DNA of 64,000 nucleotides, from assembly GCA_965238075.1 (NCBI GenBank), contig OZ250173.1, positions 2,144,001 to 2,208,000 of the forward strand. The letters run 5' to 3'. Both the position numbers and the translations under genes were made by a program. The stretch comes from Candidatus Entotheonellaceae bacterium. Lineage in GTDB: Bacteria > Tectomicrobia > Entotheonellia > Entotheonellales > Entotheonellaceae. Under the pieces are notes generated by a model. It was not told the DNA's origin, ran no database searches, and saw only the letters and a list, made by a program, of their open reading frames with translations. Below, piece by piece: positions 12,871-29,620 of the stretch (position 1 is its first letter; every line of letters starts with the position of its first letter).

Positions 12871-15096
12871 ATGCGAGGTTACCGAGTCAACGACGCGCAA
12901 GGGCGGGCGGCAACGTGCCGGTCTCTGGCTCTGGCGTTCCTGGTTGGCCTGCTGCTGCTCGGCGTCGGCGCCGAAATCGTGCAGGCCGTGGAGGTGCCGC
13001 TGCCGACCAAGGAAGACATGGTGTACGGCGACTTCCCGGTCGTTGGCCGACGCGTCGCGATATGGGTCATCGCGCAATTACACCTGATGTTCGGCGCCTT
13101 CGTGGTCGGCGTGCCGTTGTTTATTCTGATTATCGAAATCCTGGGCGCCGCAACGAAGAACCAACAGTACGACGACTTGGCGCACGAATTCACCCGCCTC
13201 CTCAGTGTTGCCTTTTCCACCACCGCCATTTTCGGCGGTATCTTGGTGTTTTTCCTGATCGGTCTCTATCCCACCTTCACGAATTTCCTGGTCAGTATTT
13301 TCTTCCCCTCCATGGTGGTCTATGTCTTCCTGTTCTTCGGCGAAAGCTTCAGCATGTATCTCTACTACTTCGGCTGGGACGTCCTGAAAGGCACGTCGCG
13401 CAGCGTCGGGACGGTGATCGGCACGACGGCCCTGAGCGTGCTGGTGCTATACCCGGGGCTCCTGTTGCTGCTGGCGCTGCCGTCCCTGTTCATGGTTGGC
13501 GGCTGGGCGGTGAGTTTCCCGGTGTCGTACGGACTGGCCGGGGTCCTGTTCATCGCGCTGTTGGCGCACGGGTTGCGGCCAGGCAAGAGCAGTTTTGTTC
13601 AGAGCCGCAAATGGATGCATATCTGCTTCGGTATTCTGCTGAACTACTTCGGTCTGACCCTGATGATGATCGCTAACTCGTGGGCGACGTTCATGACGTC
13701 GCCGTCGGGGATCAATCTGGACGCCGGGGTGTTCCAGGGCACGACCTGGGACGCGATGCGCAACTTCACGTGGATGCCGGTCAACCTGCACCGGTTCATC
13801 GCCAATATCGCCTTTGGCGGCTCGATCGTGGCGGCGTATGCGGCGTTTCGCTTCCTGTCGTCGGCGCGCAATTCCCCCGAGCGGGCGCACTACGACTGGA
13901 TGGGGTACATCGGCAATTTCATCGCTCTGATCGGGCTGATCCCGCTGCCCTTCGCGGGCTACTGGCTGGGCCGGGAAATCTATGGCTACGATCAGCAGCT
14001 CGGCATCACCATGATGGGCGGCATCTTCTCCTGGCTGTTCATCCTGCAGGCGGTGCTGATCGGCGCTCTGTTTCTGGGCGCCAACTACTACCTGTGGCTG
14101 GGCATGGAGCGCATTCCGGGGTCGGAGCGCTACCGCAAGTTTACGCCTGTCATGCTCGGCGTGCTGACGGTTTGCTTCCTCGTGTGGCTGACGCCGCACA
14201 GCCTCGTGGCCAGCCTGGAAGAGGCCCGCAGGATGGGTGGGGCACACCACCCGATGCTCGGCGTCTTCGGGGTCATGTCGGCCAAGAACACCGTCGTCAA
14301 TCTGATGATTCTGACCACTTTCCTGAGTTTCCTGCTCTACCGCCGCGGCAACAAGGGTGAACGGCTTCCCTTTGCCCAGCAAAGCGGTGCGTCGAAAGTC
14401 GCGCTGATGATCGTGGCGGCCTTGGGGATTGTCCTCATGTGGCAACTCAGCGCGCCGCTTGCCGACCCGGCGCTGATGACCGGGCGCCTGCTGCTGTGGG
14501 GCTTCGAGACCCTGGCCGTGGTCGCTGCGGTGGCCCTCACCCTGAACGACCGCGGCACCCTGGGGCAGGGGCTGCTCTTTGCCATGTCGGCGCTGGTGGT
14601 GGTGTTTTACGGAATCTACGGCTACTACGTTGAAGCTATTGTGCGCATCGGTTTTTCCATCCTGCAGGTGTCATCGGTGCTGCTCGTGCTGCTGGTGGCG
14701 ACGACCATCGACATCGTGATCTTCCGCCGTGCGCCGCTCGTCGGCGAAATCAATTGGGGCCGGATTCCGGAGCGGTCGCAGTACGTCCTGTTCCTGCTTG
14801 CCACCTCGTTCACGTGGCTGATGGGCTTGATGGGCTACGCGCGTTCGGGCCTGCGCACGCACTGGCATATCTTCAACGTTATGCGGGATTACTCGTCGGA
14901 TGCCTTTACCCCGACGTTGGGTTATGCCTGCGGGGTGATTTCGATCATCGTGCTGGTGTTTATGCTCCTGGTGAGTTTCATTTTCTGGTTGGCCCATATG
15001 GGCTCGTTGGGGCATGCGCAGGAGGAAGCGGTGCTGCATGGAGCCCCGTCCCCGGTGTTGCAACCCGGCGGGGCAGCCGGCGGAGGCGCAGACTAG
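12871..15096 (+). CDS. Cytochrome bd subunit I (CydA)-like protein, Nitrospira-type bd-like / OR-N-like; no CydB adjacent
   Basis: AQLHLMF (H19-like), FFGESF (E107-like), IANSWATFMTSP, NLHRF (H186-like), GYARSGLRTHW in place of E.GRQPW; many TM helices. Start uncertain (12799 or 12871). Confidence 0.8.
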   Translation: MRGYRVNDAQGRAATCRSLALAFLVGLLLLGVGAEIVQAVEVPLPTKEDMVYGDFPVVGRRVAIWVIAQLHLMFGAFVVGVPLFILIIEILGAATKNQQYDDLAHEFTRLLSVAFSTTAIFGGILVFFLIGLYPTFTNFLVSIFFPSMVVYVFLFFGESFSMYLYYFGWDVLKGTSRSVGTVIGTTALSVLVLYPGLLLLLALPSLFMVGGWAVSFPVSYGLAGVLFIALLAHGLRPGKSSFVQSRKWMHICFGILLNYFGLTLMMIANSWATFMTSPSGINLDAGVFQGTTWDAMRNFTWMPVNLHRFIANIAFGGSIVAAYAAFRFLSSARNSPERAHYDWMGYIGNFIALIGLIPLPFAGYWLGREIYGYDQQLGITMMGGIFSWLFILQAVLIGALFLGANYYLWLGMERIPGSERYRKFTPVMLGVLTVCFLVWLTPHSLVASLEEARRMGGAHHPMLGVFGVMSAKNTVVNLMILTTFLSFLLYRRGNKGERLPFAQQSGASKVALMIVAALGIVLMWQLSAPLADPALMTGRLLLWGFETLAVVAAVALTLNDRGTLGQGLLFAMSALVVVFYGIYGYYVEAIVRIGFSILQVSSVLLVLLVATTIDIVIFRRAPLVGEINWGRIPERSQYVLFLLATSFTWLMGLMGYARSGLRTHWHIFNVMRDYSSDAFTPTLGYACGVISIIVLVFMLLVSFIFWLAHMGSLGHAQEEAVLHGAPSPVLQPGGAAGGGAD

Positions 15097-15108
15097 GAAA
15101 GCGGCGAC

Positions 15109-15945
15109 ATGTTGACATTTCTGAAAGTTATGGCGTTTAACGGTTTGGTAGTTCTGTTCTTCTGGTACGTCGGCAACAGTATTCCGCAGCAGCGGAAAGA
15201 CCCGCCCAAGGAGTCCACCCTGACGGCGGACATGGCGCCCGAGGTGTTCGTCGCGGCCGGGCAGGATATCTTTTACGGCAAGGGCACCTGCGCACTGTGT
15301 CACACGATTGGCGAGAAAGGCGAGCGCTGTCCGAATCTTGCCGGTATCGGCCAGCGGGCCGGCGCGCGGGTGGAAGAAGCCAGTTACCAGGGGGATGCGA
15401 GCAATGGCGCCGAGTACGTGGTGGAGTCGTTGCACAACCCGGCGGTGTACGTGGTGGACGGCTATCAGCCCACCATGCCCGCTATGGGGCGCCAGTTGAA
15501 CGATCTCGAAATAGTCGCCGTGGTTGCCTTTATGCAGTCGCTGGGTGGCGAAGTGACCGTAACGGGCGAGACGCTTTTTCCCAAGTACCGCGCCGACAGC
15601 GGTGCGGCGGTGGCCGCGGCGCCGGCCGCCGGGGCGGCCCCTGCAATGGTTGCGGCGTCGGGCGGCACGGGCTCGGAGTTGGTGGCGCAGTGGGGATGTA
15701 TCAGTTGCCACAGCCTGGACGCGCCGGTTCGCCTGGTCGGGCCCAGCCTGTGGGACATCGGGGCGCGCCAGGACGAGCACTTCATTCGTGAGTCCATTCT
15801 CAAGCCGGACGCCGTGGTGGCGGAGGGCTTCCCGCCGAGTTTGATGAAACTGACGTTGGATGGCCAGGGCTTTTACCAGAAGCTCGCCGTGCAGGACCTC
15901 AATACGCTGGTGGATTATTTGGCATCCCTCAAGGGCGGCCAGTAG
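15109..15945 (+). CDS. Membrane-anchored diheme cytochrome c
   Basis: N-terminal hydrophobic helix; CALCH and CISCH heme motifs separated by an Ala/Pro linker. Confidence 0.9.
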   Translation: MLTFLKVMAFNGLVVLFFWYVGNSIPQQRKDPPKESTLTADMAPEVFVAAGQDIFYGKGTCALCHTIGEKGERCPNLAGIGQRAGARVEEASYQGDASNGAEYVVESLHNPAVYVVDGYQPTMPAMGRQLNDLEIVAVVAFMQSLGGEVTVTGETLFPKYRADSGAAVAAAPAAGAAPAMVAASGGTGSELVAQWGCISCHSLDAPVRLVGPSLWDIGARQDEHFIRESILKPDAVVAEGFPPSLMKLTLDGQGFYQKLAVQDLNTLVDYLASLKGGQ

Positions 15946-15981
15946 GGCCGGGAATGGGTTCGACCCGGAATTGGAGCAACC

Positions 15982-16770
15982 ATGAGACGTGGATTGTCTA
16001 TTCACCTTAAATCGCTGCTCGTCCTCCTTGTGGCGCTGTTTGTCTTCAGCGTTGTGGTGCCCTTCGTTTCCGCACCGATCCCGGGACAACTTTATGGCTG
16101 GTACGTCATCACAACGCTGTTCGTGATCTTCCTCTACGTCTCCTCCAGCGAGGCGTCGCTGGAAGAATTCATGTTGCCGGTGCGCCAGCTCCTGTTGGCG
16201 CGTACGGCGTTGATGAAGCCGTTGCGCATCGTCGTGTTCATCGTCGTGCCGCTCGTCTGCGGCTGGTATTTCTCCACCTGGGCAGCGGGCGGCTCGGCGT
16301 CGCCGGGCGGTCAGCGGGTCATTCACCCGACGCCGCCTACGGCGGTCAATTTCCAGGGCAAACGCCTGGTGCTGCAGGATATTTCGATCAGCCCTGTTCG
16401 TGAGGATGCGGCGCATCTCGCCGAGCACATCGAGAAGGGCCGTATCGTGTATTACGAAAATTGCTTCTTCTGCCATGGCGACGCGCTGCAGGGCAAGGGG
16501 CATTTCGCCGAGGGATTCAATCCGTCTCCGGCGAATTTTCAGGACACTGGGACGATTGCACAGTTGTCGGAATCCTACCTGTTCTGGCGCATTGCCAAGG
16601 GCGGGCCGGGATTGCCGGGTGAATCGGCGCCGTGGGATTCAGCGATGCCGGTCTGGGAGGACTTCCTCACGGAAGAAGAAATCTGGCAGGTCATTGCTTA
16701 CCTGTATGACGCCACAGGACACGCACCGCGGGTCATGGACCACGGCGGCGGTGAAGGTGGCGGACACTAG
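15982..16770 (+). CDS. Membrane-bound monoheme cytochrome c (about 3 N-terminal TM helices)
   Basis: CFFCHG motif and distal Met in SAMPVW. Confidence 0.88.
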   Translation: MRRGLSIHLKSLLVLLVALFVFSVVVPFVSAPIPGQLYGWYVITTLFVIFLYVSSSEASLEEFMLPVRQLLLARTALMKPLRIVVFIVVPLVCGWYFSTWAAGGSASPGGQRVIHPTPPTAVNFQGKRLVLQDISISPVREDAAHLAEHIEKGRIVYYENCFFCHGDALQGKGHFAEGFNPSPANFQDTGTIAQLSESYLFWRIAKGGPGLPGESAPWDSAMPVWEDFLTEEEIWQVIAYLYDATGHAPRVMDHGGGEGGGH

Positions 16771-16785
16771 GTGCGAGGAGTGACG

Positions 16786-18405
16786 GTGAGCGAGCAACGG
16801 AAAACACGGGGTCGAAGCATAAGCGCGCTGGCATGCTGTATGGGGCTGTGCCTGTTGGCCGGCGTGGCGCTGCTGAACGCCCCCATGGTAAACGCCCAGC
16901 CCACGCAGGCGGACCTCGAAGCCGGTGAGCAGCTATACCTCCAGCGCTGCGCCCATTGTCACGGCACGGAAGGCGACGGCGTTGGCGCTTCGGCGGATGT
17001 CGTCTATCCCAAGCCGCGCGATTTCACCTCCGGCGTTTACAAGTTCCGTACCCACCATGAAACCGAAGACGGCAATCCGCTGGCCGCCGACGCCGACATC
17101 GCCCGCAGCATTCGAGAGGGGCTGCACGGCTCGTCGATGCCGGGATGGGAAGCGATTCTGAGCGGTCGGCAGATCGACCAGTTGGTGCACTACATCAAGA
17201 CGTTCGCCGAGGTGTTCGAGGAAGACGTGCCGGGGCCGGCACTCAGCTTTGCCAACGAGATTGCCTCGTCGCCGGAGAGCATTGCCAGGGGCAAGGAGAT
17301 TTTCGAGACCGTTTTCGAATGCCATACCTGCCACGGAACGGACGGCCGCGGCAACGGTCAGCAGGCCCTCGATGGCCTGGAAGATGATTGGGGTTATCGT
17401 ATCTGGCCGGCCAATCTGGCCAAGCCCTGGACGTACCGCGGCGGCAGCGGGCGGCGTGACATCTTCCGCAACATCGCCCTGGGCATTTTGGGCACGCCCA
17501 TGCCGGCCTTTGCCGACCCGGATCCGCTGGTCGAGGCCCGCGAGACGGATGACCCGGAAGAGAAACAAGAGATCGAAGCGCTGGCGCGGGAGTTGCGGGA
17601 GGACATCTGGCACACTGTGAACTACGTCCAATCCTTGTGGACCTACCCGCAGCAGCCCGAGGTCAAGGCGACGTTGACCGCCAAGCGGGTTGACGGCGCT
17701 CTGCCCATGAGTCCCGATGACGCGGCGTGGCAGGAGGCCCCGGTCAACTACTATCCGTTGGTTGGCCAGGTGATCCAGGAGCCGCGGCTGTTTGCCCCCA
17801 TGACCGTAGGCGTGGAACTCCAGGCCCTGCACAACGGCGAGGAAATTGCTTTTCGGCTGGTGTGGGACGACCGCACCGACAGCAAACCGGGAGAGAGCGA
17901 CGAGATGGAAACCTACGTGGATGCCATCGCCCTGCAGTTCTCTTCCAAGCCGCTGTCCGGTATGGAGAAGCCGTATTTCCTCATGGGCGGCGCGTCCTAT
18001 CCGACCGACCTGTGGTATTGGCGAAACGACCCCGGCGATGCGGTGCTGATTCAAACGCAGGGCGCCAGGTCATTTCAGGTCGGCGATAATGCCGGCGGGC
18101 TGGTCAGCCAGGGACAGTTGGACAACGGGCAATACCGCTTGGTGATCCAGCGGGCTTTGCAGACGGAGCAGACTGACACGGAAGTTCAGTTTCCAATCGG
18201 CGCCTTCATCCCGTTCAGCGTGACGGGGTGGGACGGCTCGAACGGCGAGTTCGGCGGCTACAAGCGGACGGTGATGGCCTGGTACAACCTGTACCTGGAG
18301 CCGGAGTCTTCGAAGGCGCCGCTCTATCTTTTGTTGGTCGGCATTGGCTTTGGATTGATCGTGGAATTCTCGGCGCTGTTTGTGACGCGAAAAAATCATG
18401 GCTGA
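16786..18405 (+). CDS. Diheme cytochrome c fused to an ethylbenzene-dehydrogenase-gamma (EB_dh/DOMON heme b)-like domain with C-terminal TM anchor
   Basis: Signal peptide; CAHCH and CHTCH; LHNGEEIAFRLVWDDRT, DAIALQF, PYFLMG, WYWR, GWDGSNGE; C-terminal hydrophobic helix. GAGGAG precedes GTG at 16786. Confidence 0.82.
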   Translation: MSEQRKTRGRSISALACCMGLCLLAGVALLNAPMVNAQPTQADLEAGEQLYLQRCAHCHGTEGDGVGASADVVYPKPRDFTSGVYKFRTHHETEDGNPLAADADIARSIREGLHGSSMPGWEAILSGRQIDQLVHYIKTFAEVFEEDVPGPALSFANEIASSPESIARGKEIFETVFECHTCHGTDGRGNGQQALDGLEDDWGYRIWPANLAKPWTYRGGSGRRDIFRNIALGILGTPMPAFADPDPLVEARETDDPEEKQEIEALARELREDIWHTVNYVQSLWTYPQQPEVKATLTAKRVDGALPMSPDDAAWQEAPVNYYPLVGQVIQEPRLFAPMTVGVELQALHNGEEIAFRLVWDDRTDSKPGESDEMETYVDAIALQFSSKPLSGMEKPYFLMGGASYPTDLWYWRNDPGDAVLIQTQGARSFQVGDNAGGLVSQGQLDNGQYRLVIQRALQTEQTDTEVQFPIGAFIPFSVTGWDGSNGEFGGYKRTVMAWYNLYLEPESSKAPLYLLLVGIGFGLIVEFSALFVTRKNHG

Positions 18406-18431
18406 CCCTGTAAGACCCCGGAGGGAAATGA

Positions 18432-19241
18432 ATGCTTGAGCAGATTATCGAACTTATGAACCGGCTGAACGTCAACATGTTGCGTTGGCTGCCGGAGGCC
18501 GCCTCAACGTACGCGCTGGCAATCGACGAGGTCTTCTACATCATCTATATCATTACCGGGTTGGCGTTCCTGCTGGTGACGGTGGTGATGTTCTGGTTTC
18601 TCATCCAGTTCAAAGCCAGACCCGGACGCAGGGCGCGCTATTCGCACGGCTACGTGGTCCTGGAGCTGATCTGGACAATTGTCCCAACCATCGTGTTCCT
18701 GGGCATTTTCTTCTACAGTCAGTCCACCTGGTCCATCATCAAGTACCCCTCCACGTTTCCCGAAAGCAGCGTCCAGGTACGGGTCGTGGCCAAGCAGTTC
18801 GCCTGGGAGTTTCATTACCCCGGCCCGGACGGCGAATTCGACACCGAGGATGACAAGATGTTCGACGGCGACATGGTCGTGCCGGTGAACCAGGTCGTGG
18901 GCCTGACGCTGCGCGGCTCGGATGTGATTCACAGCTTTTTCGTGCCGGAGTTTCGCCTGAAGCAGGACATACTGCCGAGCCGGGACATCCCGGCGTGGTT
19001 TAATGCCACCAGGACCGGGCGATTTGAAACGCCCTGCGCCGAGTTGTGCGGTCCGGGGCATTCCGGCATGAAGGGGTGGGTGAACGTTTACAGTGATGCC
19101 GAGTATCAGGCCTGGGTTGCCGAGCAGTGGCCGGCGCCTGTGGATACCGGCGCAGGGGAAATGGGCCAAGAGGACATGCCGCAGGGCGACGTGGACCCAA
19201 TGGACCAAGAGGACAGTGGCCAGGCCGATACCGCGCAATAG
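18432..19241 (+). CDS. coxB: Cytochrome c oxidase subunit II (CuA, no fused heme c)
   Basis: LELIWT, KQFAW, DVIHSF, CAELCGPGHSGM. Confidence 0.96.
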   Translation: MLEQIIELMNRLNVNMLRWLPEAASTYALAIDEVFYIIYIITGLAFLLVTVVMFWFLIQFKARPGRRARYSHGYVVLELIWTIVPTIVFLGIFFYSQSTWSIIKYPSTFPESSVQVRVVAKQFAWEFHYPGPDGEFDTEDDKMFDGDMVVPVNQVVGLTLRGSDVIHSFFVPEFRLKQDILPSRDIPAWFNATRTGRFETPCAELCGPGHSGMKGWVNVYSDAEYQAWVAEQWPAPVDTGAGEMGQEDMPQGDVDPMDQEDSGQADTAQ

Positions 19242-19271
19242 CGTTTTTCGCACTTGTTGAAGGGGAGAGTC

Positions 19272-21056
19272 ATGAGTGAATCCAGCGCCGCCACGCACGC
19301 CGGGCATCACCGAGAGGGTTTTGTAAAGCATTATTTTTTCTCGCTCGATCACAAGATGATTGGTCGTCAGTTTCTCTTCACCGGCCTGTCCATGCTGGTC
19401 ATCGGCGGCCTGCTGGCCATGATGGTTCGCTGGCAGCTCGGCTATCCGGAAGAACCGTTGCCCTTCATGGGCGGTTTTTCCGAGGACTTCTGGGACGGCG
19501 AGTCGTGGTGGGCGCAGACCGCTCCCTACGGTATTGTGACGTCCGAGTTCTACAACACGCTGTTCACCATGCACGCCACCATCATGATCTTCTTCGTGGT
19601 CATGCCGATCATGATCGGCGGTTTCGGCAATTTCCTCGTTCCCATCTGCATCGGCGCCAAAGACATGGCGTTTCCGACGCTGAACATGCTGTCATACTGG
19701 ACCTTTGTGCCCGGCGTCCTCCTGATGCTCCTGTCGTTCTTCGTGCCCGGCGGCGCGGCGGGCGGCGGCTGGACCAGTTACGCCCCTCTGGCCGCAGTGC
19801 CGGATTACGCCGGCGTCGAGGGACACTGGGGCGTCACGCTGTGGTGCATCAGTCTGTTCATCATCGGCTTCTCCTCCCTGATGGGCTCCATCAACTACAT
19901 CACCACCATCATCAACATGCGGGCGCCGGGCATGCGCCTGTTCCGCATGCCGCTGACCATCTGGTCCCTGTTCATCGTCGCCATGCTGCTGCTGCTGGCC
20001 CTGCCGGTGCTGACCTCAGCCCTGGCCATGATGGTCTTCGACCGTATGTTCGGCACCCACTTCTTCATTCCCGACGGCGGCGGCGAGCCATTGTTGTGGC
20101 AACACCTGTTCTGGTTCTTCGGCCACCCCGAGGTGTACGTCCTGGTGCTGCCGGCCATGGGCGTGACCTCCGACGTGCTGTCCACCTTCGCCCGCAAGCC
20201 GATCTTCGGCTACCGCGCCATGGTCTACTCGATGTGCGCCATCGCCTTTCTGTCGTGGGTCGTCTGGGGCCATCACATGTTCCAGAGCGGCATGGACCCG
20301 GTGCTCGGCACCGCCTTCACGCTGACCACCATGCTGATCGCGGTGCCGTCGGCGATCAAGACGTTCAACTGGCTCGGCACCCTGTGGGGCAGTTCCATCC
20401 GGTTCACCACGGCCATGTGGTTCGCCCTCGGGTTCGTATCGCTGTTCACCATCGGCGGCCTCAGCGGCATCTTCATGGCGTCGACGCCGGTGGACATTTT
20501 CATCCACGATACCTACTACATCGTGGCCCACATTCACTACGTGGTGGCGGGGATCATTTTCGGCATCTTCGCCGGGTTGTACTTCTGGTTTCCGAAAATG
20601 TTCGGACGCATGATGAGCGAAACCCTGGGCAAGCTGCACTTCGTGCTCACCTTCGTGTTTTTCAACCTCACCTTCTTCCCCATGCACTTTCTCGGTGTCG
20701 GCGGCCACATGCGGCGCATTTACAACCCGACGCAGTATGAATTTCTGCAGCCGTGGCAGGAGATGAACACCTTCATCACGATGATGGCGCTTTGCCTGGG
20801 TGCCTCACAGATTTTCTTCGCGATCAACTTCATCGGCTCCCTGATCTGGGGCCGGCGCGCCGAAGATAACCCCTGGGAGGCCAACACGCTGGAGTGGGAT
20901 ACGCCCTCGCCGCCGCCGCATGGCAATTTCCTCGAGGATCCGGTGGTTTACCGCGGCGCCTACGAATACAGCTCGCCTGAGGTCGAGGAGGATTGGTTGC
21001 CGCAGAGCGTGTATCTGGAGCCAGCGGTGGCCGGGCCGGAGGAGGGTCACGATTAG
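19272..21056 (+). CDS. coxA: Cytochrome c oxidase subunit I, family A1
   Basis: TMHAT, DMAFPTLN (D-channel), FGHPEVY, WGHHM, AVPSAIK (K-channel), AHIHY. Confidence 0.97.
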   Translation: MSESSAATHAGHHREGFVKHYFFSLDHKMIGRQFLFTGLSMLVIGGLLAMMVRWQLGYPEEPLPFMGGFSEDFWDGESWWAQTAPYGIVTSEFYNTLFTMHATIMIFFVVMPIMIGGFGNFLVPICIGAKDMAFPTLNMLSYWTFVPGVLLMLLSFFVPGGAAGGGWTSYAPLAAVPDYAGVEGHWGVTLWCISLFIIGFSSLMGSINYITTIINMRAPGMRLFRMPLTIWSLFIVAMLLLLALPVLTSALAMMVFDRMFGTHFFIPDGGGEPLLWQHLFWFFGHPEVYVLVLPAMGVTSDVLSTFARKPIFGYRAMVYSMCAIAFLSWVVWGHHMFQSGMDPVLGTAFTLTTMLIAVPSAIKTFNWLGTLWGSSIRFTTAMWFALGFVSLFTIGGLSGIFMASTPVDIFIHDTYYIVAHIHYVVAGIIFGIFAGLYFWFPKMFGRMMSETLGKLHFVLTFVFFNLTFFPMHFLGVGGHMRRIYNPTQYEFLQPWQEMNTFITMMALCLGASQIFFAINFIGSLIWGRRAEDNPWEANTLEWDTPSPPPHGNFLEDPVVYRGAYEYSSPEVEEDWLPQSVYLEPAVAGPEEGHD

Positions 21057-22015
21057 TGTCTTCGTCGCCGACGCCGCTATGGGTGCACCGCTTGGCGGTG
21101 GCGCTGATGGTCGCCACGCTGCTGCTAATCGCCATCGGTGCCTCCGTTACCAGCACAGGCTCCGGGCTGGCGGTGCCCGATTGGCCGTTGTCCTTCGGGC
21201 AGGTATTCCCGCCGATGGTGGGCGGCGTGCTGTACGAGCACGGCCATCGCATGGCGGCGGCCGTGGTCGGCATGCTGACGGTTACCTTGATGGTCGTGAT
21301 GACCCGCTGGGAATCGCGGGCGTGGATGCAATGGATATCCCGCACTGCAGTGCTGGCGGTGGTATTGCAGGGGTTGCTCGGCGGCATCACGGTGCTGTGG
21401 CTATTGCCGACGGCGATATCGGTCAGCCACGCGTGTCTGGCGCAGGCGTTTCTTTGCCTGACCGTCACGCTTGCGGTGTGCACGGGGCCGAGTTGGCAAC
21501 AACGGTGGGCCAGTCGGGAGGAAGACTCGCAGCCGCGTCTGGTTGTGCTGGCGGGTGTCACCACGGGGATGATTTACGTGCAACTTATTCTGGGTGCCCT
21601 CATGCGGCACACCGGCGCCGGCTTGGCGATTCCCGATTTTCCGCTCGCCTTTGGCGGCTTGGTGCCGCCCTTGGATTCCCCGGCGGTGCTCATCCATTTC
21701 CTGCATCGCGTCGGCGCGTTGGCGGTGACGCTGTGCATCGCTTGGACCGTCTCGCGGGTCATTCGCCAGCACGCTGGCGAACGGCAATTGCTGCGGCCCG
21801 CGCTGACGTTGAGCGGTTTGCTGCTGGTGCAGCTCACGCTGGGGGCGCTGACCATCTGGACGCGCCGGGCGGTTCTGCCGGTCACCGCGCACGTGGCGGT
21901 GGGCGCAGCGGTTCTGGCGACAAGTCTGTTTCTCACCCTGCGAAGTTTGCACTTGCTGAACCTTCGTTTTGGGGCTCAAGAGCGGCATTTCTTGACTGAG
22001 CAGGTATCGGCATGA
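21056..22015 (+). CDS. ctaA: Heme A synthase (COX15/CtaA)
   Basis: GLAVPDWP, YEHGHR, SHACLA, HFLHR, TAHV. GTG overlaps the coxA stop with GGAGGAGG upstream. Confidence 0.9.
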   Translation: MSSSPTPLWVHRLAVALMVATLLLIAIGASVTSTGSGLAVPDWPLSFGQVFPPMVGGVLYEHGHRMAAAVVGMLTVTLMVVMTRWESRAWMQWISRTAVLAVVLQGLLGGITVLWLLPTAISVSHACLAQAFLCLTVTLAVCTGPSWQQRWASREEDSQPRLVVLAGVTTGMIYVQLILGALMRHTGAGLAIPDFPLAFGGLVPPLDSPAVLIHFLHRVGALAVTLCIAWTVSRVIRQHAGERQLLRPALTLSGLLLVQLTLGALTIWTRRAVLPVTAHVAVGAAVLATSLFLTLRSLHLLNLRFGAQERHFLTEQVSA

Positions 22016-22923
22016 CAGGACTGCAACTGGCCACACCGCGCGTTGAAAGCACGCCCCTCGTCCACAAGGTGCGCGACTATCTGGTGCTCGCCAAGCCGCG
22101 TGTCGTGGTCATGGTGATGGCGGTGACGGCAGTGGGCTATTACCTGGGCGCGCTTGGCGCCCCGGACTGGTTGCGCCTGCTGCATCTCATGTTCGGAACG
22201 GCCTTGGCGGCGGGCGGCACCCTGGCCCTGAACGCTTATGTTGAGCGCACCGAGGACGCCTTGATGAGTCGCACGGAGTTGCGGCCCCTTCCGGACGGTC
22301 GCCTGGAACCAACAGCCGCTTTGCGTTTTGGTCTTGCCGCCGCCTTGATCGGTTGTTCTTATCTGTTGATCATGGTGCACCCACTTTGTGCCGCTCTCAT
22401 TGCGCTTACCACTCTGATCTACCTGTTCGGCTACACGCCGCTCAAACGCAGGACCTCCCTCTGTACGCTTGTCGGCGCCATTCCCGGCGCCTTGCCGCCC
22501 GTGGTCGGATGGGCCGCGGCGCGCGGCACGCTGGTGGGCGAGGTCTGGATCCTGTTCGCCATCCTGTTTCTGTGGCAACTGCCCCATTCGCTGGCCATTG
22601 CCTGGTTGTACCGTGAGGACTACACCCGCGCAGGGTTCCGTCTCCTGCCGGTGATTCACCCGGACGGCCGCAGCACGGGGCGCCACATCGTTATGAATAA
22701 TCTGGCCCTCCTGGCCGTCGGCCTGCTGCCGACTCTGGTCGGCCTCGCCGGCACCGTTTACTTTGTCGCTGCCTTTGTCCTGGGCCTGATGTTCCTGGGA
22801 TTCGGTCTCGAACTGGCGCTCGTCCGAACTACTGCCGCGGCACGGCGCCTGTTGCTGGCCTCACTGGTGTATCTGCCGGTGATGTTCTTGTTCATGGCAC
22901 TCGATAAAGTGCCGCAGTTTTAG
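22012..22923 (+). CDS. ctaB: Protoheme IX farnesyltransferase (heme O synthase)
   Basis: LAKPRV, DALMSRT..RPLP.G, YTPLKR, GAIPGALPP, LWQLPH, YREDY. Confidence 0.95.
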   Translation: MTGLQLATPRVESTPLVHKVRDYLVLAKPRVVVMVMAVTAVGYYLGALGAPDWLRLLHLMFGTALAAGGTLALNAYVERTEDALMSRTELRPLPDGRLEPTAALRFGLAAALIGCSYLLIMVHPLCAALIALTTLIYLFGYTPLKRRTSLCTLVGAIPGALPPVVGWAAARGTLVGEVWILFAILFLWQLPHSLAIAWLYREDYTRAGFRLLPVIHPDGRSTGRHIVMNNLALLAVGLLPTLVGLAGTVYFVAAFVLGLMFLGFGLELALVRTTAAARRLLLASLVYLPVMFLFMALDKVPQF

Positions 22924-22934
22924 CAGGTAGCGAG

Positions 22935-23042
22935 ATGGCTTCCGACACGAAACGGCAACAGAACCGCTGGACGGCGGGCGCCTTGGTGCTGCTCCTGCTG
23001 GCGTTGTTTGGGGTGGCTTTCAGCCTGATGTTGTCGCGTTGA
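22935..23042 (+). CDS. 35-aa single-TM microprotein in the cox operon (below the ORF-track cutoff)
   Basis: MASDTKRQQNRWTAGALVLLLLALFGVAFSLMLSR: basic N-terminus plus hydrophobic helix; fills the ctaB-coxC gap. Confidence 0.6.
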   Translation: MASDTKRQQNRWTAGALVLLLLALFGVAFSLMLSR

Positions 23043-23078
23043 TGCAAAGGGTGTTCATCGTGTCCGAAGGGGGAAACG

Positions 23079-23786
23079 ATGGCCGAAGACATGTCCGCAA
23101 CCGCTACGCTGGAGCCTGCGCTCGAAGAGGTTGAATCGGACGTTCGCCCGCAGGGGCCGCCGCCGTTCTTTCCTGAGCCGCCCGGCGGCTCGGGGGGTGA
23201 TGACCGGTTTGGCGATGACGACGATCACGCCGGTCCGCCGTTAAGCAATGCCTACCTGGGGCTGCTGATCTTCCTGGGCGCCGAAACGATGTTCTTTGCC
23301 GGGCTGATTGGCTCGTTCCTGGTCTTTCGGGTGGCTCATGAGGTATGGCCGCCGGCAATGCTGCCGCGTTTGCCGGTGGGGGCTACGGGTGTCAACACGC
23401 TGATTCTGCTGGCCAGCGCCCTGACGATGCGGCGGGCGAAAATTGCAATCCGCAGCGGCGGACAGCGCGAGTCGGTCCGCATGCTCTTGGTCACCGCGGT
23501 GCTGGGCATCACGTTTCTCCTCGTGCAGGGATACGAGTGGCTCCGGCTACTGCAGTACGGGCTGACCTTGGCGTCGGGCGTTTACGGCGCCACGTTTTAC
23601 GTTCTGGTTGGGTGCCATGCCGTGCACGTGCTCGGCGCCGTCATCTGGCTGGTGAGCGTGTTGTGGTGGGCCGTGCGGCGCCGTTACACGGCCAAGGGTT
23701 ATACGGGTGTGGCGCTGTGCGCCATGTACTGGTATTACGTGGTGGCGTTATGGCCCATTCTTTACGGGCTGGTTTACCTGTATTGA
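23079..23786 (+). CDS. coxC: Cytochrome c oxidase subunit III-family protein (first paralogue)
   Basis: FLGAETMFF, NTLILLAS, QGYEW, LVGCHAVHV, MYWYYV. Confidence 0.88.
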   Translation: MAEDMSATATLEPALEEVESDVRPQGPPPFFPEPPGGSGGDDRFGDDDDHAGPPLSNAYLGLLIFLGAETMFFAGLIGSFLVFRVAHEVWPPAMLPRLPVGATGVNTLILLASALTMRRAKIAIRSGGQRESVRMLLVTAVLGITFLLVQGYEWLRLLQYGLTLASGVYGATFYVLVGCHAVHVLGAVIWLVSVLWWAVRRRYTAKGYTGVALCAMYWYYVVALWPILYGLVYLY

Positions 23787-23839
23787 TCACAGCGGTGGCG
23801 CTGGGGCCACCTGACATTCTCAGGATAGGGAGATAAACA

Positions 23840-24115
23840 TTGCAGATGCGCAGGCCAGTCAAACGGATTGTCGCAGTGATCGTGTTTGCGGCGGGGTTGC
23901 TGCCGGCACTGTCGCACGCTTGCAGCGTTTGCTGGGGAGCGGATGATGCCCTCGCGCATGGCCTGAACGTCAGCATTCTTTTTTTGATGTCGATGCCTTT
24001 CTTGATTGGCGGGTCGATTGTGGGTGTTCTGTTCGTCGCTCAGCGACAGCATAAGGGCCGGCGTCGGTCGATACTCGGAAGCCTCATCCCGATGCAGAAG
24101 GAGCGTGTAAAGTGA
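23840..24115 (+). CDS. Small membrane protein with CxxC after a signal peptide
   Basis: SHACSVCWG followed by one TM helix; GTGA overlap with the next gene. Confidence 0.65.
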   Translation: MQMRRPVKRIVAVIVFAAGLLPALSHACSVCWGADDALAHGLNVSILFLMSMPFLIGGSIVGVLFVAQRQHKGRRRSILGSLIPMQKERVK

Positions 24116-24723
24116 GTGAAGCGGTTGCGATGCAGAACGAGTCTTATGAAACGCCTCTGACTCCCGAAAGTTGGGGCAAGCTCGGGATGTGGGTTTTTCT
24201 GGTTGGCGACGCCATGTCATTCGGGACGCTGCTGGCGGCTTACGGCGCCATGCGCTACAGCAGTGGCGACTGGCCCATTCCGGCTGACGTTCTCGGCGTT
24301 GCCTTATCGGGTTTCATGACCTTTCTGTTGATCTGCAGCAGCGTGACGATGGTGAAAGGGCTTGAGGCGGCGCAGAGGAACGATCTCGACGGCTTCCTGC
24401 GCTTCATCGGCCTCACCATCCTGAGCGGCGCGATCTTCCTGGGCTTGCAGGCTTATGAATGGACGCACTTCATCCACGGCGGCCTGGGATTCGCTAGCAA
24501 TCCCTGGGGCTCGCCGTTGTTTGGCACCACGTTTTACGTCATCACGGGCTTCCACGGCATGCACGTGACCGGTGGCGTCATCTATCTGTCGTGCATCTGG
24601 TTCAAGGGCCGCAACGGCGCCTATTGCGGCGAAAACGCTTCACACGTCGAAATTGCCGGGCTGTACTGGCACTTTGTGGATTTGGTGTGGATCATGGTTT
24701 TTACCTTCATATACCTGTTGTAG
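24112..24723 (+). CDS. coxC: Cytochrome c oxidase subunit III-family protein (second paralogue)
   Basis: GKLGMWVFLVGD, ITGFHGMHV, GLYWHFVDLVW. Confidence 0.92.
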   Translation: MSEAVAMQNESYETPLTPESWGKLGMWVFLVGDAMSFGTLLAAYGAMRYSSGDWPIPADVLGVALSGFMTFLLICSSVTMVKGLEAAQRNDLDGFLRFIGLTILSGAIFLGLQAYEWTHFIHGGLGFASNPWGSPLFGTTFYVITGFHGMHVTGGVIYLSCIWFKGRNGAYCGENASHVEIAGLYWHFVDLVWIMVFTFIYLL

Positions 24724-24745
24724 AACGGAGGAGGAGAGCAACAGC

Positions 24746-25069
24746 ATGGCCGAGCACCATCGGGCAACCAATTACTGGGCGGTGTGGGTATGGTTAGCCG
24801 TTCTCACCATTTTTGAAATCGGCGTTACGTTGATTCCGGAACTCGCGACGCTTTACAAAGCCATTCTGCTGGTCGCCTTGGCGGTGGGCAAAGCGTTTTT
24901 GGTGGCGCTGTACTTCATGCACCTACGCTTTGAAACGCGTACGCTGGGGGCAATCGTGTTGACCCCCTTTGTAATCTGTGTGTTTCTCGTTTTTATGCTG
25001 ATGCCCGATGTCGGTTTCGAGCCGCGCGAGTCGCCCATACGTGCGGAGCACGTGGAATCGGATCATTGA
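24746..25069 (+). CDS. coxD: Cytochrome c oxidase subunit IV-family protein
   Basis: YWAVWVWLAVLT..E and KAFLVALYFMHLRFE; strong SD GGAGGAGG. Confidence 0.88.
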   Translation: MAEHHRATNYWAVWVWLAVLTIFEIGVTLIPELATLYKAILLVALAVGKAFLVALYFMHLRFETRTLGAIVLTPFVICVFLVFMLMPDVGFEPRESPIRAEHVESDH

Positions 25070-25106
25070 TGCCCTGGGACGACGGCATTGAGCCCGGGCG
25101 GGAAAG

Positions 25107-25541
25107 GTGGCGGACGGATTCGTTATGGTCGCTCTATCGACTTGGCCGTTGTTGAACGCCGTCTTGAATGGCACCAGCGCCCTGCTCCTCAGCAGCGGTT
25201 TCGTCGCCATCCGTCGCCGCCGAATAGCGGTCCACAAAGCGTGCATGCTGACCGCCTGCGCGACGTCGGTTCTGTTTCTCGTGTCGTACCTGCTGTATCA
25301 CTATCAGGTCGGTTCTACGGCTTTTACCGGGCAGGGTACGATTCGGGTCGTGTACTTCACCGTGCTGATCTCGCACACCGTTCTCGCGGTGGTGATTGTG
25401 CCGCTGGTCATCATGACGCTGCACCGGGCGTGGCGGGAGCAGTGGCCGCGTCATCGGCGGCTGGCGCGTTGGACATTCCCCCTGTGGCTCTATGTATCCG
25501 TAACCGGTGTGGTCATCTACATCATGTTGTATCAACTGTAA
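25107..25541 (+). CDS. DUF420 (CtaM-like) membrane protein
   Basis: LNAVLNG, HKACM, FLVSYLLYH, LISHTVLA, HRRLARWTFPLWLYVSVTGV. Confidence 0.9.
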   Translation: MADGFVMVALSTWPLLNAVLNGTSALLLSSGFVAIRRRRIAVHKACMLTACATSVLFLVSYLLYHYQVGSTAFTGQGTIRVVYFTVLISHTVLAVVIVPLVIMTLHRAWREQWPRHRRLARWTFPLWLYVSVTGVVIYIMLYQL

Positions 25542-25595
25542 GCGCCTCAAGTTCCCCCGTCCGCGGGGAAGTCGCATAAAAACCGGAGGGTAGGT

Positions 25596-25937
25596 ATGAG
25601 ACGCCTTTGGAATCTCCTCGACGTTTTCTTCTTCGCTATTGTGATCCTGGCCTTGGCGATTTGGCAGTTCAAGCATGGCACCAGCGGCGAAATGATCGTT
25701 TCCGCGTTGGCGATTCTCGGCGGTATCGGCTTGCTGTTTACCGGTCGATGGGGTCTTGTGCTCACCTGCATCGCGCTGCTCTTGGCGATCGCGGTCTATT
25801 TCTGGCAGATGTGGTACCAGCCGATTATCGAGGAAGACATCAATCTGGTGCTGCCGAACGTCTGGAAGATGCTCGTCGCCATCGTCCTGTTCATCTACAT
25901 CGGCCGCGAACGTATTGACCACCGCATGGCCTCGTAG
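25596..25937 (+). CDS. Hypothetical 4-TM membrane protein
   Basis: Strong SD GGAGG; four hydrophobic segments. Confidence 0.7.
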   Translation: MRRLWNLLDVFFFAIVILALAIWQFKHGTSGEMIVSALAILGGIGLLFTGRWGLVLTCIALLLAIAVYFWQMWYQPIIEEDINLVLPNVWKMLVAIVLFIYIGRERIDHRMAS

Positions 25938-25974
25938 GCGGGTCAGTGGTTGAGCGCCGGCAGGTCCCGGCTCG

Positions 25975-26346
25975 GTGGCCGGGATGACGTTGAAGCGGGC
26001 GCTGGGACTGCTTGGCCGCGGCCTGCGGCTGCGTTGTCCGCGCTGTGGAGCCAAGACGCTCTTCCGCAAGGGCTTCGCCATGCATGAGCGCTGCCGTGTC
26101 TGCGCCTATCGCTTTGAGCGCGAGCAGGGTTACTTCGTCGGGGCGATGTACATCAATTACGGCGTCACGGTGCTCATCATCGTGGTCGGCTACTTCGCTC
26201 TGGAATGGTGGACGCCTATCACCCTGGCCCAGCAGCTCGCTTTGTGGTCCGGCGTCGGCATCATCCTGCCGGTGGCTTTCTTTCGGCAAGCGCGTGGATT
26301 GTGGTTGGGATTCGACTACATCTTCAATCCCGGCGAGGACGACTGA
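25975..26346 (+). CDS. DUF983-family protein
   Basis: RGLRLRCPRCG...LF...CRVC...EREQGYF plus two TM helices. Confidence 0.85.
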   Translation: MAGMTLKRALGLLGRGLRLRCPRCGAKTLFRKGFAMHERCRVCAYRFEREQGYFVGAMYINYGVTVLIIVVGYFALEWWTPITLAQQLALWSGVGIILPVAFFRQARGLWLGFDYIFNPGEDD

Positions 26347-26381
26347 TTCAAGCCCGCCGGGGGCGAACCACTGGAGCCGCC

Positions 26382-26912
26382 ATGTTCACGGGCGCCTTTG
26401 ACGTTCTCGTCTCCTTCCGGGTGCTGATTCTTTGCCTTCACGTGCTGGCCGTGTTGACCTGGGTCGGGGGTCTGGTCTACCAGGTCATCGTCGTCTTGCC
26501 GGTGGTTGGAAAAGGCATCGCCAGCGTCGCCTCGCTGCGCATCGGCTTGGGCTGCGAGGCGCGCTTCCGAGCCGTGATGTGGCCCGCGGTGGGTATTGCG
26601 CTGTTTACCGGATTGGTGAACCTGATGAACGTCTGGAACGGCCTGCGTCAGGTTGGCGCCAGCCTTCCGGCTGCTTTCGCGTCGCTACTGGTCATCAAGT
26701 TGCTGCTGGTTGCGGGCATGATCCTTTTGCAGGCTGGTCAGCAGTTCGTGGTGTATCCCAAACGCCTGGGCTTGATGGCTCAGGTGGCGCCGGACGCAGC
26801 GGTGCTTCCGGCCGATCTGGCGATCTGGCAACGCCGGGCATTCTGGCTGCATGTCGCCACGGTTTGTCTGGCTGTTCCGGCCATTTTGTGCGCCCTTCTG
26901 CTGCGCGGCTAG
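26382..26912 (+). CDS. CopD-like membrane protein
   Basis: LHVLAVLTWVGGL, FTGLVN, LVIKLLLV. Confidence 0.65.
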   Translation: MFTGAFDVLVSFRVLILCLHVLAVLTWVGGLVYQVIVVLPVVGKGIASVASLRIGLGCEARFRAVMWPAVGIALFTGLVNLMNVWNGLRQVGASLPAAFASLLVIKLLLVAGMILLQAGQQFVVYPKRLGLMAQVAPDAAVLPADLAIWQRRAFWLHVATVCLAVPAILCALLLRG

Positions 26913-26936: not shown

Positions 26937-26966
26937 TTGACGCAAGCCGCGCCGGTTGCATACAAT
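26937..26966 (+). promoter_or_regulatory. Candidate sigma70 promoter upstream of the soluble cytochrome c / USP module
   Basis: TTGACG-18 bp-TACAAT in intergenic DNA. Confidence 0.55.
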
Positions 26967-27080: not shown

Positions 27081-27698
27081 ATGCGAGTGTTAGTGGGGCT
27101 TATCTGTCTTGGCTTGTTCGTTCTTCCGGCACTGGCTGCCGATAAAATTGCCGAGCGGGTTGCCAAAATGGACATTTCAGAAGAACAACTGTTCGCAATC
27201 GGTGAGACGCTGTTCAACACGGAGGGCGCCAACACCTGCCTGAAGTGCCACGGCGCCGGCGGGCACGGCGGCGACCAGGCCGGCGCGGCCGACCTGCGGC
27301 ATCCGCGCACGTGGCGCTCTTATCAGGCCCTCGGCGGCGACGAAGCCTTTAACGCTGACAAGGACGCCTTTCTTGCCAATATGGCCACCGTCATCCACTT
27401 CCTCATCCGCGCGAGCGCCCCGATCTGGAACCTGCGCTTCGCCAAGTCCCACAAGGATATCGAGATGGATTGGTCGCAGGTGACCATCCCCGACAAGGTC
27501 GACAAGTACAACAGCATGATGAAGGGTATCACCTCCGGCCCGATGAAAAAGGCCCTGAAAGCCATGGCCAAGCAGTTCAAGGCCGACAACGGCACAAAGC
27601 TCAAATCAAAGGATCAGAAAGACGTGGCGGCCGTGGGCGCCTATTTGTATGTCCGCTCTTTCGATGATGGTAGCGACAAGGCCGGGGTGTTCAAATAA
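27081..27698 (+). CDS. Periplasmic monoheme cytochrome c, Lys-rich
   Basis: Signal peptide ending ALA, CLKCH, candidate distal Met (NSMMKG). Confidence 0.85.
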   Translation: MRVLVGLICLGLFVLPALAADKIAERVAKMDISEEQLFAIGETLFNTEGANTCLKCHGAGGHGGDQAGAADLRHPRTWRSYQALGGDEAFNADKDAFLANMATVIHFLIRASAPIWNLRFAKSHKDIEMDWSQVTIPDKVDKYNSMMKGITSGPMKKALKAMAKQFKADNGTKLKSKDQKDVAAVGAYLYVRSFDDGSDKAGVFK

Positions 27699-27768: not shown

Positions 27769-29592
27769 ATGTTCAAGAAAATCTACGTGCCTGTTGATAA
27801 TTCCGAATACGCGAATCACGCCATCGATCTGGCGTTGACACTTGCCAAGCCCTGGAATGCCACCCTCGTGGGCAGTCACGTCTACGCTGCCAAGATGCAC
27901 GATTACCGCTTCAAGCAAATGGAATATACCCTGCCGGAGGAATACCAGGACGAGACCGAGCTGGAGCGGCAGCGCAAGATTCACGACTCGCTCATCACCC
28001 TCGGGTTGCGGCTCATCTCCGATTCCTACCTCGATGTCCTGAAGGCGCGCTGCGAAGAAGCGTCCCTGCCGTTCGAGGCCAAGACGTTCGACGGCAAGCA
28101 CCACAAGGTCCTCGTGGATGACATCGCCCAGAGCGACTACGACCTGGTTGTGATGGGAGCCCTCGGCATTGGCGCGGTGAAGGAAAGCCAGCTCGGCAGC
28201 GTGTGCGAGCGCGTCGTTCGACGGGTGCAGCGCGACGTGCTGGTGGTCAAGAATTTCCGACCGCCTACCGCCGGAGACAAAATCCTCGTCGGTATCGACG
28301 GCAGCCCGCAGTCCTTTGGCGGCCTCAAGACGGCCATCGAGCTGAGCAAGACTTACAACAAGCCCATCGAGGCGATCTCCGTTTACGACCCCTTCCTGCA
28401 CTATGTTGCGTTCAATGGCATCGTCGACGTGCTGTCGGAGCAGGCTTCCAAGGTCTTCCGCTTCAAGGAGCAGGAGCAGTTGCATGAGGAGATTATCGAC
28501 ACCGGCCTGGCCAAGATCTACCAGTCCCACCTGGAAGTGGCCCGCGACATCGCCCGGCAGGAGGGTGTCGACATCGAGTTGACGCTGCTGCCCGGCAAGG
28601 TGTTCGAAAAGGTGTTGCGGCATGCCCACAAGATCCAGCCGTGGCTGTTGATCCTCGGGCGTATCGGCATTCACAGCCAGCGGGACGAAATGGACCTCGG
28701 CAGCAATACCGAAAATCTCCTGCGGCTGGCTCCCTGCCACGTCCTGCTTTCCAGCAGCGTGTACGTGCCGCCGCTGGATCAGCGGGCCGAGGAAAGTGTC
28801 AACTGGACGGAAGAGGCCGAAGCGCGCATGGAGCGCGTGCCGCCTCTGGTCAAGGGCATCGCCCGCACGGCCATTCTGCGGTTCGCCATGGAGGGCGGCA
28901 ACTCGGTGGTCACGTCGGACGTCATCGAACAGGCGATGGTCGCCTTCATGCCGGGATATACCGGCAAGATGATGGGCAAGGCGGCCAAGGTGCTGGCCAT
29001 CGACAAGGTGCGGCAAGAACCCGCGTTGACCTACATCTGCTCGTCGTGCGGCTACACCGCCAAATCGGCGAATCCGGCGCGATGCCCGGTCTGCAGCGCC
29101 ACTGCCGAGCAGTTCCAGGTCATTGATCGTCAGGTCGTGGAGGCGATTGCCGAGGCCGAGGGAACGACCCTGGAAGAGGCCGCCTTCGACGGCAAGAAGC
29201 TGAAATGGTCGGCAGAAGCGCGGCGCGCCCTGCGTGAAGTGCCGGACGCCTATCTCCGGCGGCGTGCCAAGGCGCGCATCGAAAAGGCGGCGCGCATGCA
29301 GAAGCTGCCGACCATTACCCGCGACCTGGCGCTGCCGTTTATCGACGAGACGGTCGGCAGCGACCGCCTCGACGCCACCGGCTCCGCCGAAGCGGCTGCC
29401 GCCGCGCCTGCTGAGAACGGCGAGCGCCGCCCCGTGCCGCGCCCGTCGCAGCCGCTGCGCACCCAGCCGGGCGTTTCTGATAATCCCGCCCTGGACTGGA
29501 CCAATGATGACGGCAACCTGAACGAGATTGGCGCCGGCCGGGTCGTGATTACCTCGATGCCCGCGCATGGCGATTCGGACAGGGGAGAGTAG
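27769..29592 (+). CDS. Tandem universal stress protein fused to PCP_red - rubredoxin-like - PCP_red domains
   Basis: Two USP starts (KIYVPVDNS, KILVGIDGS), WTEEAEARMERVP, CSSCGY...CPVC, WSAEARRALREVP. Confidence 0.82.
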   Translation: MFKKIYVPVDNSEYANHAIDLALTLAKPWNATLVGSHVYAAKMHDYRFKQMEYTLPEEYQDETELERQRKIHDSLITLGLRLISDSYLDVLKARCEEASLPFEAKTFDGKHHKVLVDDIAQSDYDLVVMGALGIGAVKESQLGSVCERVVRRVQRDVLVVKNFRPPTAGDKILVGIDGSPQSFGGLKTAIELSKTYNKPIEAISVYDPFLHYVAFNGIVDVLSEQASKVFRFKEQEQLHEEIIDTGLAKIYQSHLEVARDIARQEGVDIELTLLPGKVFEKVLRHAHKIQPWLLILGRIGIHSQRDEMDLGSNTENLLRLAPCHVLLSSSVYVPPLDQRAEESVNWTEEAEARMERVPPLVKGIARTAILRFAMEGGNSVVTSDVIEQAMVAFMPGYTGKMMGKAAKVLAIDKVRQEPALTYICSSCGYTAKSANPARCPVCSATAEQFQVIDRQVVEAIAEAEGTTLEEAAFDGKKLKWSAEARRALREVPDAYLRRRAKARIEKAARMQKLPTITRDLALPFIDETVGSDRLDATGSAEAAAAAPAENGERRPVPRPSQPLRTQPGVSDNPALDWTNDDGNLNEIGAGRVVITSMPAHGDSDRGE

Positions 29593-29620
29593 GACCGATC
29601 GGATTCCGTTATCGTTTCCT

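Follow-up and report, generated by a model that had tools for sequence, protein, structure and literature searches.

Cytochrome bd-like proteins encoded together with c-type cytochromes have been described in several lineages. The TO_1 block of Candidatus Manganitrophus comprises two cytochromes c in addition to a bd-like protein and a periplasmic heme b or alternative NxrC subunit (bioRxiv 10.1101/2021.11.15.468770), Nitrospira moscoviensis carries bd-like_2 and bd-like_3 with two cytochromes c and alt_NxrC (PMC6606698), and the same components lie in the nxr cluster of Nitrospina, which contains cupredoxin-like genes too (PMC3578206). By annotation only, kustd1712-1709 of Kuenenia stuttgartiensis form a similar series of cydA-like, diheme, monoheme, and diheme genes, with uspA (kustd1706) nearby (PMC6423088). 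The portions of the preprint by Murali, Gennis, and Hemp drawn on here (bioRxiv 10.1101/2021.01.16.426971; His19, Glu99, and Glu107 in Escherichia coli numbering) characterize OR-N2 proteins by a retained first helical bundle and His19, a lost quinol site, about 14 core membrane helices, and no second cydA-like gene in the operon. Here, we analyzed a module of this kind in a 64,000-nucleotide stretch of the genome of Candidatus Entotheonellaceae bacterium (contig OZ250173.1 of GCA_965238075.1; G000:C1:2144001-2208000, hereafter the window; genome G000 is 3.35 Mb, a single contig, and 93% complete). The CydA-like protein shares the OR-N2 traits, but it has four extra helices in two insertions and its gene stands in line with an A1-type aa3 oxidase operon. 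Unlike in Manganitrophus, Nitrospira, and Nitrospina, the genome has neither nitrite oxidoreductase (NXR) nor an OR-N1-like partner, and the module is followed by coxBA rather than lying after a Rieske/cytochrome b pair or being linked to nxr; in Kuenenia, by contrast, the host is anaerobic, the module is nxr linked, and the listed cluster contains no cox operon. We conclude that a known but uncharacterized module is coupled here to a particular A1 oxidase and that this conserved arrangement is real. As to function, we tentatively favor, with a probability of roughly 40%, a shared cytochrome c wire feeding both the CuA center of the A1 oxidase and an O2-reducing site in the bd-like subunit.

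Module and oxidase genes occupy one strand in the following order (window coordinates):

12871..15096, + strand: CydA-like (OR-N2-type) membrane heme protein, 741 aa; matches Pfam PF01654 (E 7e-12) in its N-terminal part alone
15109..15945, + strand: membrane-anchored diheme cytochrome c; second His/Met heme domain after an Ala/Pro-rich linker
15982..16770, + strand: membrane monoheme cytochrome c; heme motif CxxCH at 161; Met222 and His115 invariant
16771..18405, + strand: putative alternative NxrC, 544 aa; two His/Met heme c domains, EB_dh/NxrC-type heme b domain, C-terminal membrane anchor
18432..19241, + strand: CoxB, intact CuA ligands, without fused heme c
19272..21056, + strand: CoxA, A1-type heme-copper oxidase subunit I, the subtype that co-occurs with the module
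21056..22015, + strand: CtaA heme A synthase; GTG start overlaps the coxA stop
22012..22923, + strand: CtaB heme O synthase
23079..23786, + strand: CoxC (subunit III-type), copy 1, 155 bp past ctaB
23840..24115, + strand: small open reading frame (ORF), 91 aa, no family; between both coxC genes, kept in relatives
24112..24723, + strand: CoxC (subunit III-type), copy 2
24746..25069, + strand: CoxD, subunit IV

ORF and family searches bore out the initial annotation in its reading of a CydA-like gene and three c-type cytochrome genes (2 + 1 + 2 = 5 CxxCH) followed on the same strand by coxB-coxA-ctaA-ctaB-coxC-coxC-coxD, with the addition of the 91-aa ORF between the coxC copies; this ORF has a Cys-x2-Cys-like stretch at its N terminus. 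Gaps of less than 40 bp, claimed for the whole run, hold from the cydA-like gene to ctaB (12, 36, 0, 26, and 30 bp from the cydA-like gene through coxA) but not beyond, where 155 bp separate ctaB from coxC and 53 bp separate coxC from the small ORF. The arrangement is not due to chance, because gene order is kept in relatives. The match to the published module supports assignment to the Nitrospira-type CydA-like proteins with cytochromes c. The oxidase is of A1 type, as had been proposed: it has the GHPEVY motif, the His ligands, and D- and K-channel motifs, which we take to be the features that define this class, and CoxB carries CuA. The CuA ligands are intact (H167, C202, E204, C206, H210, and M213), and the absence of a fused heme c was confirmed (no CxxCH). 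The match to TIGR02866 was above the cutoff, and that to TIGR02891 scored 647 bits versus 671. As stated in the initial annotation, cydB, Rieske, cytochrome b, and Act genes are missing from the cluster; this holds for the cluster only and is not absence from the genome, which encodes a Rieske/cytochrome b operon elsewhere.

The linkage extends well beyond this genome. Among 110 loci gathered by similarity to the query (30 from genomes and 80 from metagenomes), 63 were too short and 47 were informative, and coxB lay within 2 kb of the module in 31 of the latter. It followed directly in 11 loci, all Entotheonellaceae-like, and after one extra gene in 20. Gemmatimonadota, Elusimicrobiota, and Anaerolineales are among the named linked loci; the synteny survey shows that the link between bd-like and cox genes is conserved across phyla, and the possibility that it is unique to this genome was rejected. 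In our own tree, the linked modules stem from several deep branches. The loci nearest to the window bear the names Tectomicrobia/Candidatus Entotheonella (92 to 98% identity). Within the phylum of the window, 16 of 17 genomes have the CydA-like gene; coxA lies further along the same contig in 11, the cytochromes continue into coxB at contig ends in two more, the link is split in one (G012), and three could not be judged. The extra gene found in the 20 loci encodes a protein with invariant His154, Cys191, His194, and Met197, a His...Cys-x2-His-x2-Met site, and matches amicyanin and other blue-copper structures. A homolog of this gene in G000 (G000:C1:1513358-1514143; L120) lies beside cbb3 genes, upstream of genes for a metallophosphoesterase, a monoheme cytochrome c, a SoxYZ-like carrier, and a cbb3-type oxidase. 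No cultured host was found among the 120 best Gemmatimonadota-type homologs. A description of the module-cox linkage was not found in the literature covered, which did not extend to subscription papers or to the supplements of the Murali preprint (OR-N operon contexts), and PMC8239418 and PMC8076601 do not mention the module.

The module keeps company with one CoxA subtype. Of 71 Gemmatimonadota genomes sampled, all 19 that have the module also have a CoxA at least 65% identical to the linked query, always on the module's contig (one cut by a contig end), as does 1 of the 52 without the module (G111); the next class of CoxA was at 51% identity or less. In a quick tree of 65 CoxA sequences, which left out pieces shorter than 380 aa or with stops, 35 of 36 linked sequences fell on one branch (Shimodaira-Hasegawa-like approximate likelihood ratio test, 94). 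Two unlinked sequences (G111 and G012) were also on this branch, and the linked CoxA of Elusimicrobia was outside it and long branched. One locus (L042:3770-21532) differs: upstream of the module stands another cox operon, with a CoxA outside the linked branch, and the downstream side carries radical SAM, usp, and mrp genes.

All five c hemes of the module have an invariant or near-invariant distal Met, which is typical of high-potential class I cytochromes. The C terminus of the third cytochrome is an EB_dh or dimethyl sulfoxide (DMSO)-reductase type II heme b domain (PF09459, E 1.5e-17; TIGR03477, E 8e-30) and matches anammox NxrC (7b04_C) and EbdC (2ivf_C); on these matches, the protein is classed as an "alternative NxrC." Met405 and Lys498 of the 544-aa ORF pair with the Met and Lys of EbdC that we presume to be heme ligands. 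Given this domain, the module could be a high-potential periplasmic entry hub, on which a soluble enzyme docks at the heme b domain, most electrons pass downhill to the A1 oxidase, and the CydA-like subunit drives a share uphill to quinone. The Met/Lys pair is kept here, NXR-like genes adjoin the module in L023, L077, and Kuenenia, and G000 encodes a periplasmic pyrroloquinoline quinone (PQQ) alcohol dehydrogenase with cytochrome c. A package of module, blue-copper protein, and dedicated oxidase also resembles self-contained high-potential branches. Reverse transfer has been proposed for nitrite oxidizers and anammox bacteria (PMC3578206, PMC6606698). Against this, no NxrA or NxrB ortholog was found in G000 at its 93% completeness (best tblastn E 2e-6, over short stretches), and a link to nitrite oxidation in this organism was rejected on that ground; of 54 homologs, only 34 keep the heme b Met and only 28 the Lys, figures that possible alignment slips may affect; and users of organic donors would need little uphill transfer. 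We regard the entry hub as rather improbable. In L023 (L023:133-8744, a record named Hydrothermarchaeaceae archaeon), the module is followed by NxrA/NxrB-like genes, and the third subunit consists of the heme b domain only.

A second lead comes from the complete Rieske/cytochrome b6/subunit IV/pentaheme cytochrome c operon of G000 (G000:C1:3113714-3117509). The last domain of its pentaheme cytochrome (G000:C1:3116190-3117509; L119:3691-5007) is 46% identical to residues 123 to 276 of the module's diheme cytochrome, including part of the linker (E 1e-37). Comparison of 19 Rieske/cytochrome b loci found this heme c domain in one or two copies in 8, all Entotheonellaceae-type; some of the 11 loci lacking it are incomplete. 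The complex III copies are 43 to 61% identical to the module's second domain, versus mostly 30 to 40% for the Gemmatimonadota module copies, and in a domain tree (weak, 93 columns) they nest among module domains. Other Entotheonellaceae genera have two copies of the tethered domain (L161-L165). The lineage with the shared domain, Entotheonellaceae, is the one without the blue-copper gene in the cluster. These data suggest that the tethered domain may be a shuttle at the cytochrome c level and that complex III may have acquired it for the same acceptor, either CuA or the module. Electron transfer from the module cytochromes to CuA is plausible in light of the conserved link, the specific CoxA subtype, and the amicyanin-like protein encoded between the two gene sets in most lineages. 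The further proposal, that the module replaces complex III, is not supported.

The CydA-like protein is about 17% identical to canonical CydA and retains His71, Glu158, His250, and His307. In a profile alignment with four canonical CydA sequences, H71, Y151, E158, and H307 fell at the His19, Glu99, Glu107, and His186 positions; H71 also lines up with His21 in 5doq and with His18 in canonical CydA and is conserved in 128 of 132 sequences. Overall, the equivalents of His19, Glu107, and His186 are conserved in 126 to 130 of the 132. The numbering and roles used for His186, Met393, and Glu445, like the roles of the quinol-site residues, are those we assume for canonical CydA. An AlphaFold2 model built with the 132 sequences (predicted local distance difference test score, 91.6; predicted template modeling score, 0.90) matched solved CydA chains with Z scores of 32 to 36 over about 350 residues (root mean square deviation, 3.1 to 4.3). 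As in canonical CydAB, the whole-subunit fold is kept, and so are the equivalents of His19, Glu107, His126, and His186. The next folds were ActF (Z 21.9), ActC (18.8), and PsrC (15.9), and unrelated folds scored 7 or less. The model has 18 long helices, four of them within two lineage-specific insertions (about 174-244 and 505-560), and hydropathy gave 16 segments; no internal repeat was found between the N-terminal bundle and the remainder. In our tree, the protein groups with the Nitrospinae-named P0134 and other copies that head modules, apart from four long-branch first-of-pair copies that were taken as OR-N1-like.

The following reading accommodates these results. Together, the four module proteins would make up a single electron wire that faces the periplasm and works at the cytochrome c level. 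Its two sinks would be CuA of the A1 oxidase, which has no heme c of its own, and a site within the bd-like subunit that probably reduces O2. Electrons would enter from the Rieske/cytochrome b complex, or from periplasmic dehydrogenases via the heme b domain, and run along the His/Met hemes c; the tethered second domain of the diheme cytochrome, or the blue-copper protein in other phyla, would pass them to CuA. The bd-like subunit would reduce O2 rather than oxidize quinol, as judged from its family rather than from this protein. A stable supercomplex of module and oxidase is possible but not required. A wire with two sinks accounts for the lack of a heme c in CoxB, the pairing of one CoxA subtype with the module, and the continued need for complex III. 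O2 reduction is suggested by the CydA fold, by the His19, Glu107, and His186 equivalents, and by nitrite oxidizers: bd-like genes occur in aerobic nitrite oxidizers for which no other oxidase is known (PMC13768755), and the residues of this protein are shared by Nitrospira-like copies. It is favored over quinol oxidation because the quinol-site positions are substituted and complex III, or else alternative complex III (ACIII), is already present.

Several observations weigh against the two-sink wire, some of them bearing on the link to the oxidase. Because the loci were selected for their similarity to the query and the genomes are related, the counts do not represent independent events, and the remaining 16 of the 47 informative loci have other neighbors (usp in 5, the extra gene without coxB in 1, and something else in 10). 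In G012 (L008 and L124), ctaA comes after the module and coxB-coxA-ctaB lie on a separate contig, and in G111 the oxidase occurs without the module. The docking partner of the shared heme c domain could be the module instead of CoxB. G000 also has a cbb3-type oxidase and an enzyme resembling quinol-dependent nitric oxide reductase (qNOR; called from a COX1 match, its length, and a look at its N terminus) in addition to the A1 oxidase. The separate occurrence of the parts in G111 and G012 and the varied neighbors are consistent with two independent enzymes, clustered for joint regulation and shared heme and copper biogenesis, between which no electrons pass from the module to CoxB; biogenesis genes (ctaAB, copD-like, mrp, and usp) are interleaved with the cluster, and adjacent genes transfer together. 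However, several findings speak against independence: one CoxA subtype occurs almost exclusively alongside the module, 20 loci have a redox carrier gene inserted between the two, CoxB has no heme c of its own, and the linked modules come from several deep branches. We consider independence unlikely.

The other objections to the two-sink wire concern O2 reduction by the bd-like subunit. Tyr151 stands at the Glu99 position in 128 of 132 sequences and Ser659 at the Glu445 position in 124 (a GRQPW motif aligned with GLRTHW), and the Met393 region has no alignment in this protein. Neither CydB (PF02322) nor a second CydA was found in G000, which has a single PF01654 locus; a hidden CydB or second CydA was therefore dropped as an explanation. 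The module also sits in the nxr cluster of Kuenenia, an anaerobe (PMC6423088). The published oxidase model is an OR-N1/OR-N2 pair, and OR-N members have no known activity (bioRxiv 10.1101/2021.01.16.426971, PMC13768755). The substituted positions are common to Nitrospira-like copies and to the divergent first-of-pair copies; since they are family-wide, they do not mark this protein out as a non-oxidase.

These same substitutions bear on another reading, that of the module as a third kind of complex III. In it, the CydA-like subunit would not reduce O2 but would take electrons from quinol at a new site and send them by way of the c hemes to CuA, possibly in a supercomplex with the A1 oxidase. 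The initial annotation had put the module in the place of complex III and offered this as a new idea; a non-oxidase, complex III-like role had already been proposed (PMC3578206, PMC6606698), the former in 2013 for Nitrospina. Like ACIII or bc1 ahead of aa3 and caa3 oxidases, the module places a membrane subunit and a heme c chain directly upstream of coxBA, and the co-occurring CoxA subtype fits such a role. Loss of the Glu99 and Glu445 equivalents, the lack of CydB and of a second CydA, and the presence of the module in anammox bacteria point the same way. The family has further near-invariant residues in the 132 sequences (H460, H666, M344, M382, M469, M651, and M654), of which H460, H666, M382, M469, and M651 could bind other cofactors. 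The next-best folds are those of ActF, ActC, and PsrC, a distant likeness of the model to ACIII subunits; without a canonical CydA control, the ActC/PsrC likeness probably reflects a shared helical-bundle scaffold. Unlike canonical CydAB, the protein has no CydB partner and no Q-loop, with Glu99 replaced by Tyr and Glu445 by Ser. The quinol-site Lys and Glu of PxKLAAxE correspond to L377 and M382 (with the alignment read a few residues past its end), in a region that is helical in the model.

Canonical quinol-site positions are thus substituted, and, unlike ACIII or bc1, the module lacks ActB, ActC, ActD, Rieske, and Fe-S subunits, while true complex III or ACIII is encoded elsewhere in the same genomes. 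Besides the operon in G000, 23 of the 30 named genomes yielded a cytochrome b, as did 11 of 15 named cox-linked ones (one match weak), and ActD was present in 64 of 71 Gemmatimonadota, including all 19 with the module. The anticorrelation with bc1/ACIII that had been expected was accordingly rejected. ActD was not found in G000, whose two NrfD genes sit in other operons; a region with tetraheme cytochrome c, ferredoxin-like, and NrfD genes and further cytochromes (G000:C1:3329840-3334317) may encode a second quinol-linked complex that is not ACIII. In Nitrospira-like loci (L046, L082, L083, and L104), the module lies downstream of a Rieske/cytochrome b pair, where one would expect an oxidase, so that the position of the genes favors neither function. 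The module probably does not substitute for complex III, a claim the evidence does not support, and a third complex III type strikes us as doubtful. The fuller scenario, in which a CydA-fold protein gave up O2 reduction, meets quinone at a new site, and is bound to the A1 oxidase via the shuttle, with the complex III of Entotheonellaceae having captured the shuttle domain, seems equally doubtful.

Contigs from all four metatranscriptome runs (three studies; 4 of 14 RNA runs) bridge the junction at 18405-18432. DNA carryover is likely, however: two of these contigs also extend through the divergent upstream stretch, records of 31 to 43 kb occur in three of the runs, and the comparison had no silent control. 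Promoter and terminator scans returned counts at chance level (3 versus 4.3 expected and 17 versus 16.1, respectively) and so say nothing about transcript limits. The best promoter-like match of the region (26937-26966), from a scan whose match count was at chance, precedes a secreted monoheme cytochrome c gene.

Downstream of coxD, the same strand carries the following genes:

25107..25541, + strand: DUF420 membrane protein
25596..25937, + strand: hypothetical membrane protein, 113 aa
25984..26346, + strand: DUF983 protein
26382..26912, + strand: CopD-like membrane protein, below the Pfam cutoff
27081..27698, + strand: secreted monoheme cytochrome c
27769..29592, + strand: Usp-Usp-PCP_red-rubredoxin-PCP_red fusion; module-flanking accessory gene in other phyla
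29669..30565, + strand: Mrp/ApbC Fe-S carrier ATPase; module accessory gene
30562..31062, + strand: Cys-rich N terminus and PCP_red domain; module accessory gene

The unit runs past 26912, since the Usp-PCP_red-rubredoxin, Mrp, and PCP_red genes (27769-31062) accompany the module in other phyla. There they adjoin it directly; here the cox operon intervenes. At G000:C1:629638-630975 (L179) lies the gene for a radical SAM protein that is AhbD/NirJ-like and has a PCP_red tail; its matches fall short of every cutoff. Close homologs of it occur in 22 module loci, and it possibly makes or modifies heme for the bd-like subunit. Elsewhere in the window, positions 41000-48000 have a lower GC content (54 to 58%) with short toxin-antitoxin-like and hypothetical ORFs, and transposase-like ORFs lie at 4365-5196. 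Rfam gave no match in the whole window.

The module and both functional hypotheses were already in print: OR-N2 bd-like proteins have been proposed as the terminal oxidase of Nitrospira and marine Nitrospinaceae and, alternatively, as quinone-linked proteins. Its presence in non-nitrifiers, tied to one A1 oxidase subtype, shows it to be a general respiratory device, and the linkage offers defined partners in the CuA domain, the tethered heme domain, and the blue-copper protein. If the module truly oxidizes quinol, the bd superfamily would gain a new function; if it is a true oxidase, this would settle how major nitrite oxidizers breathe.

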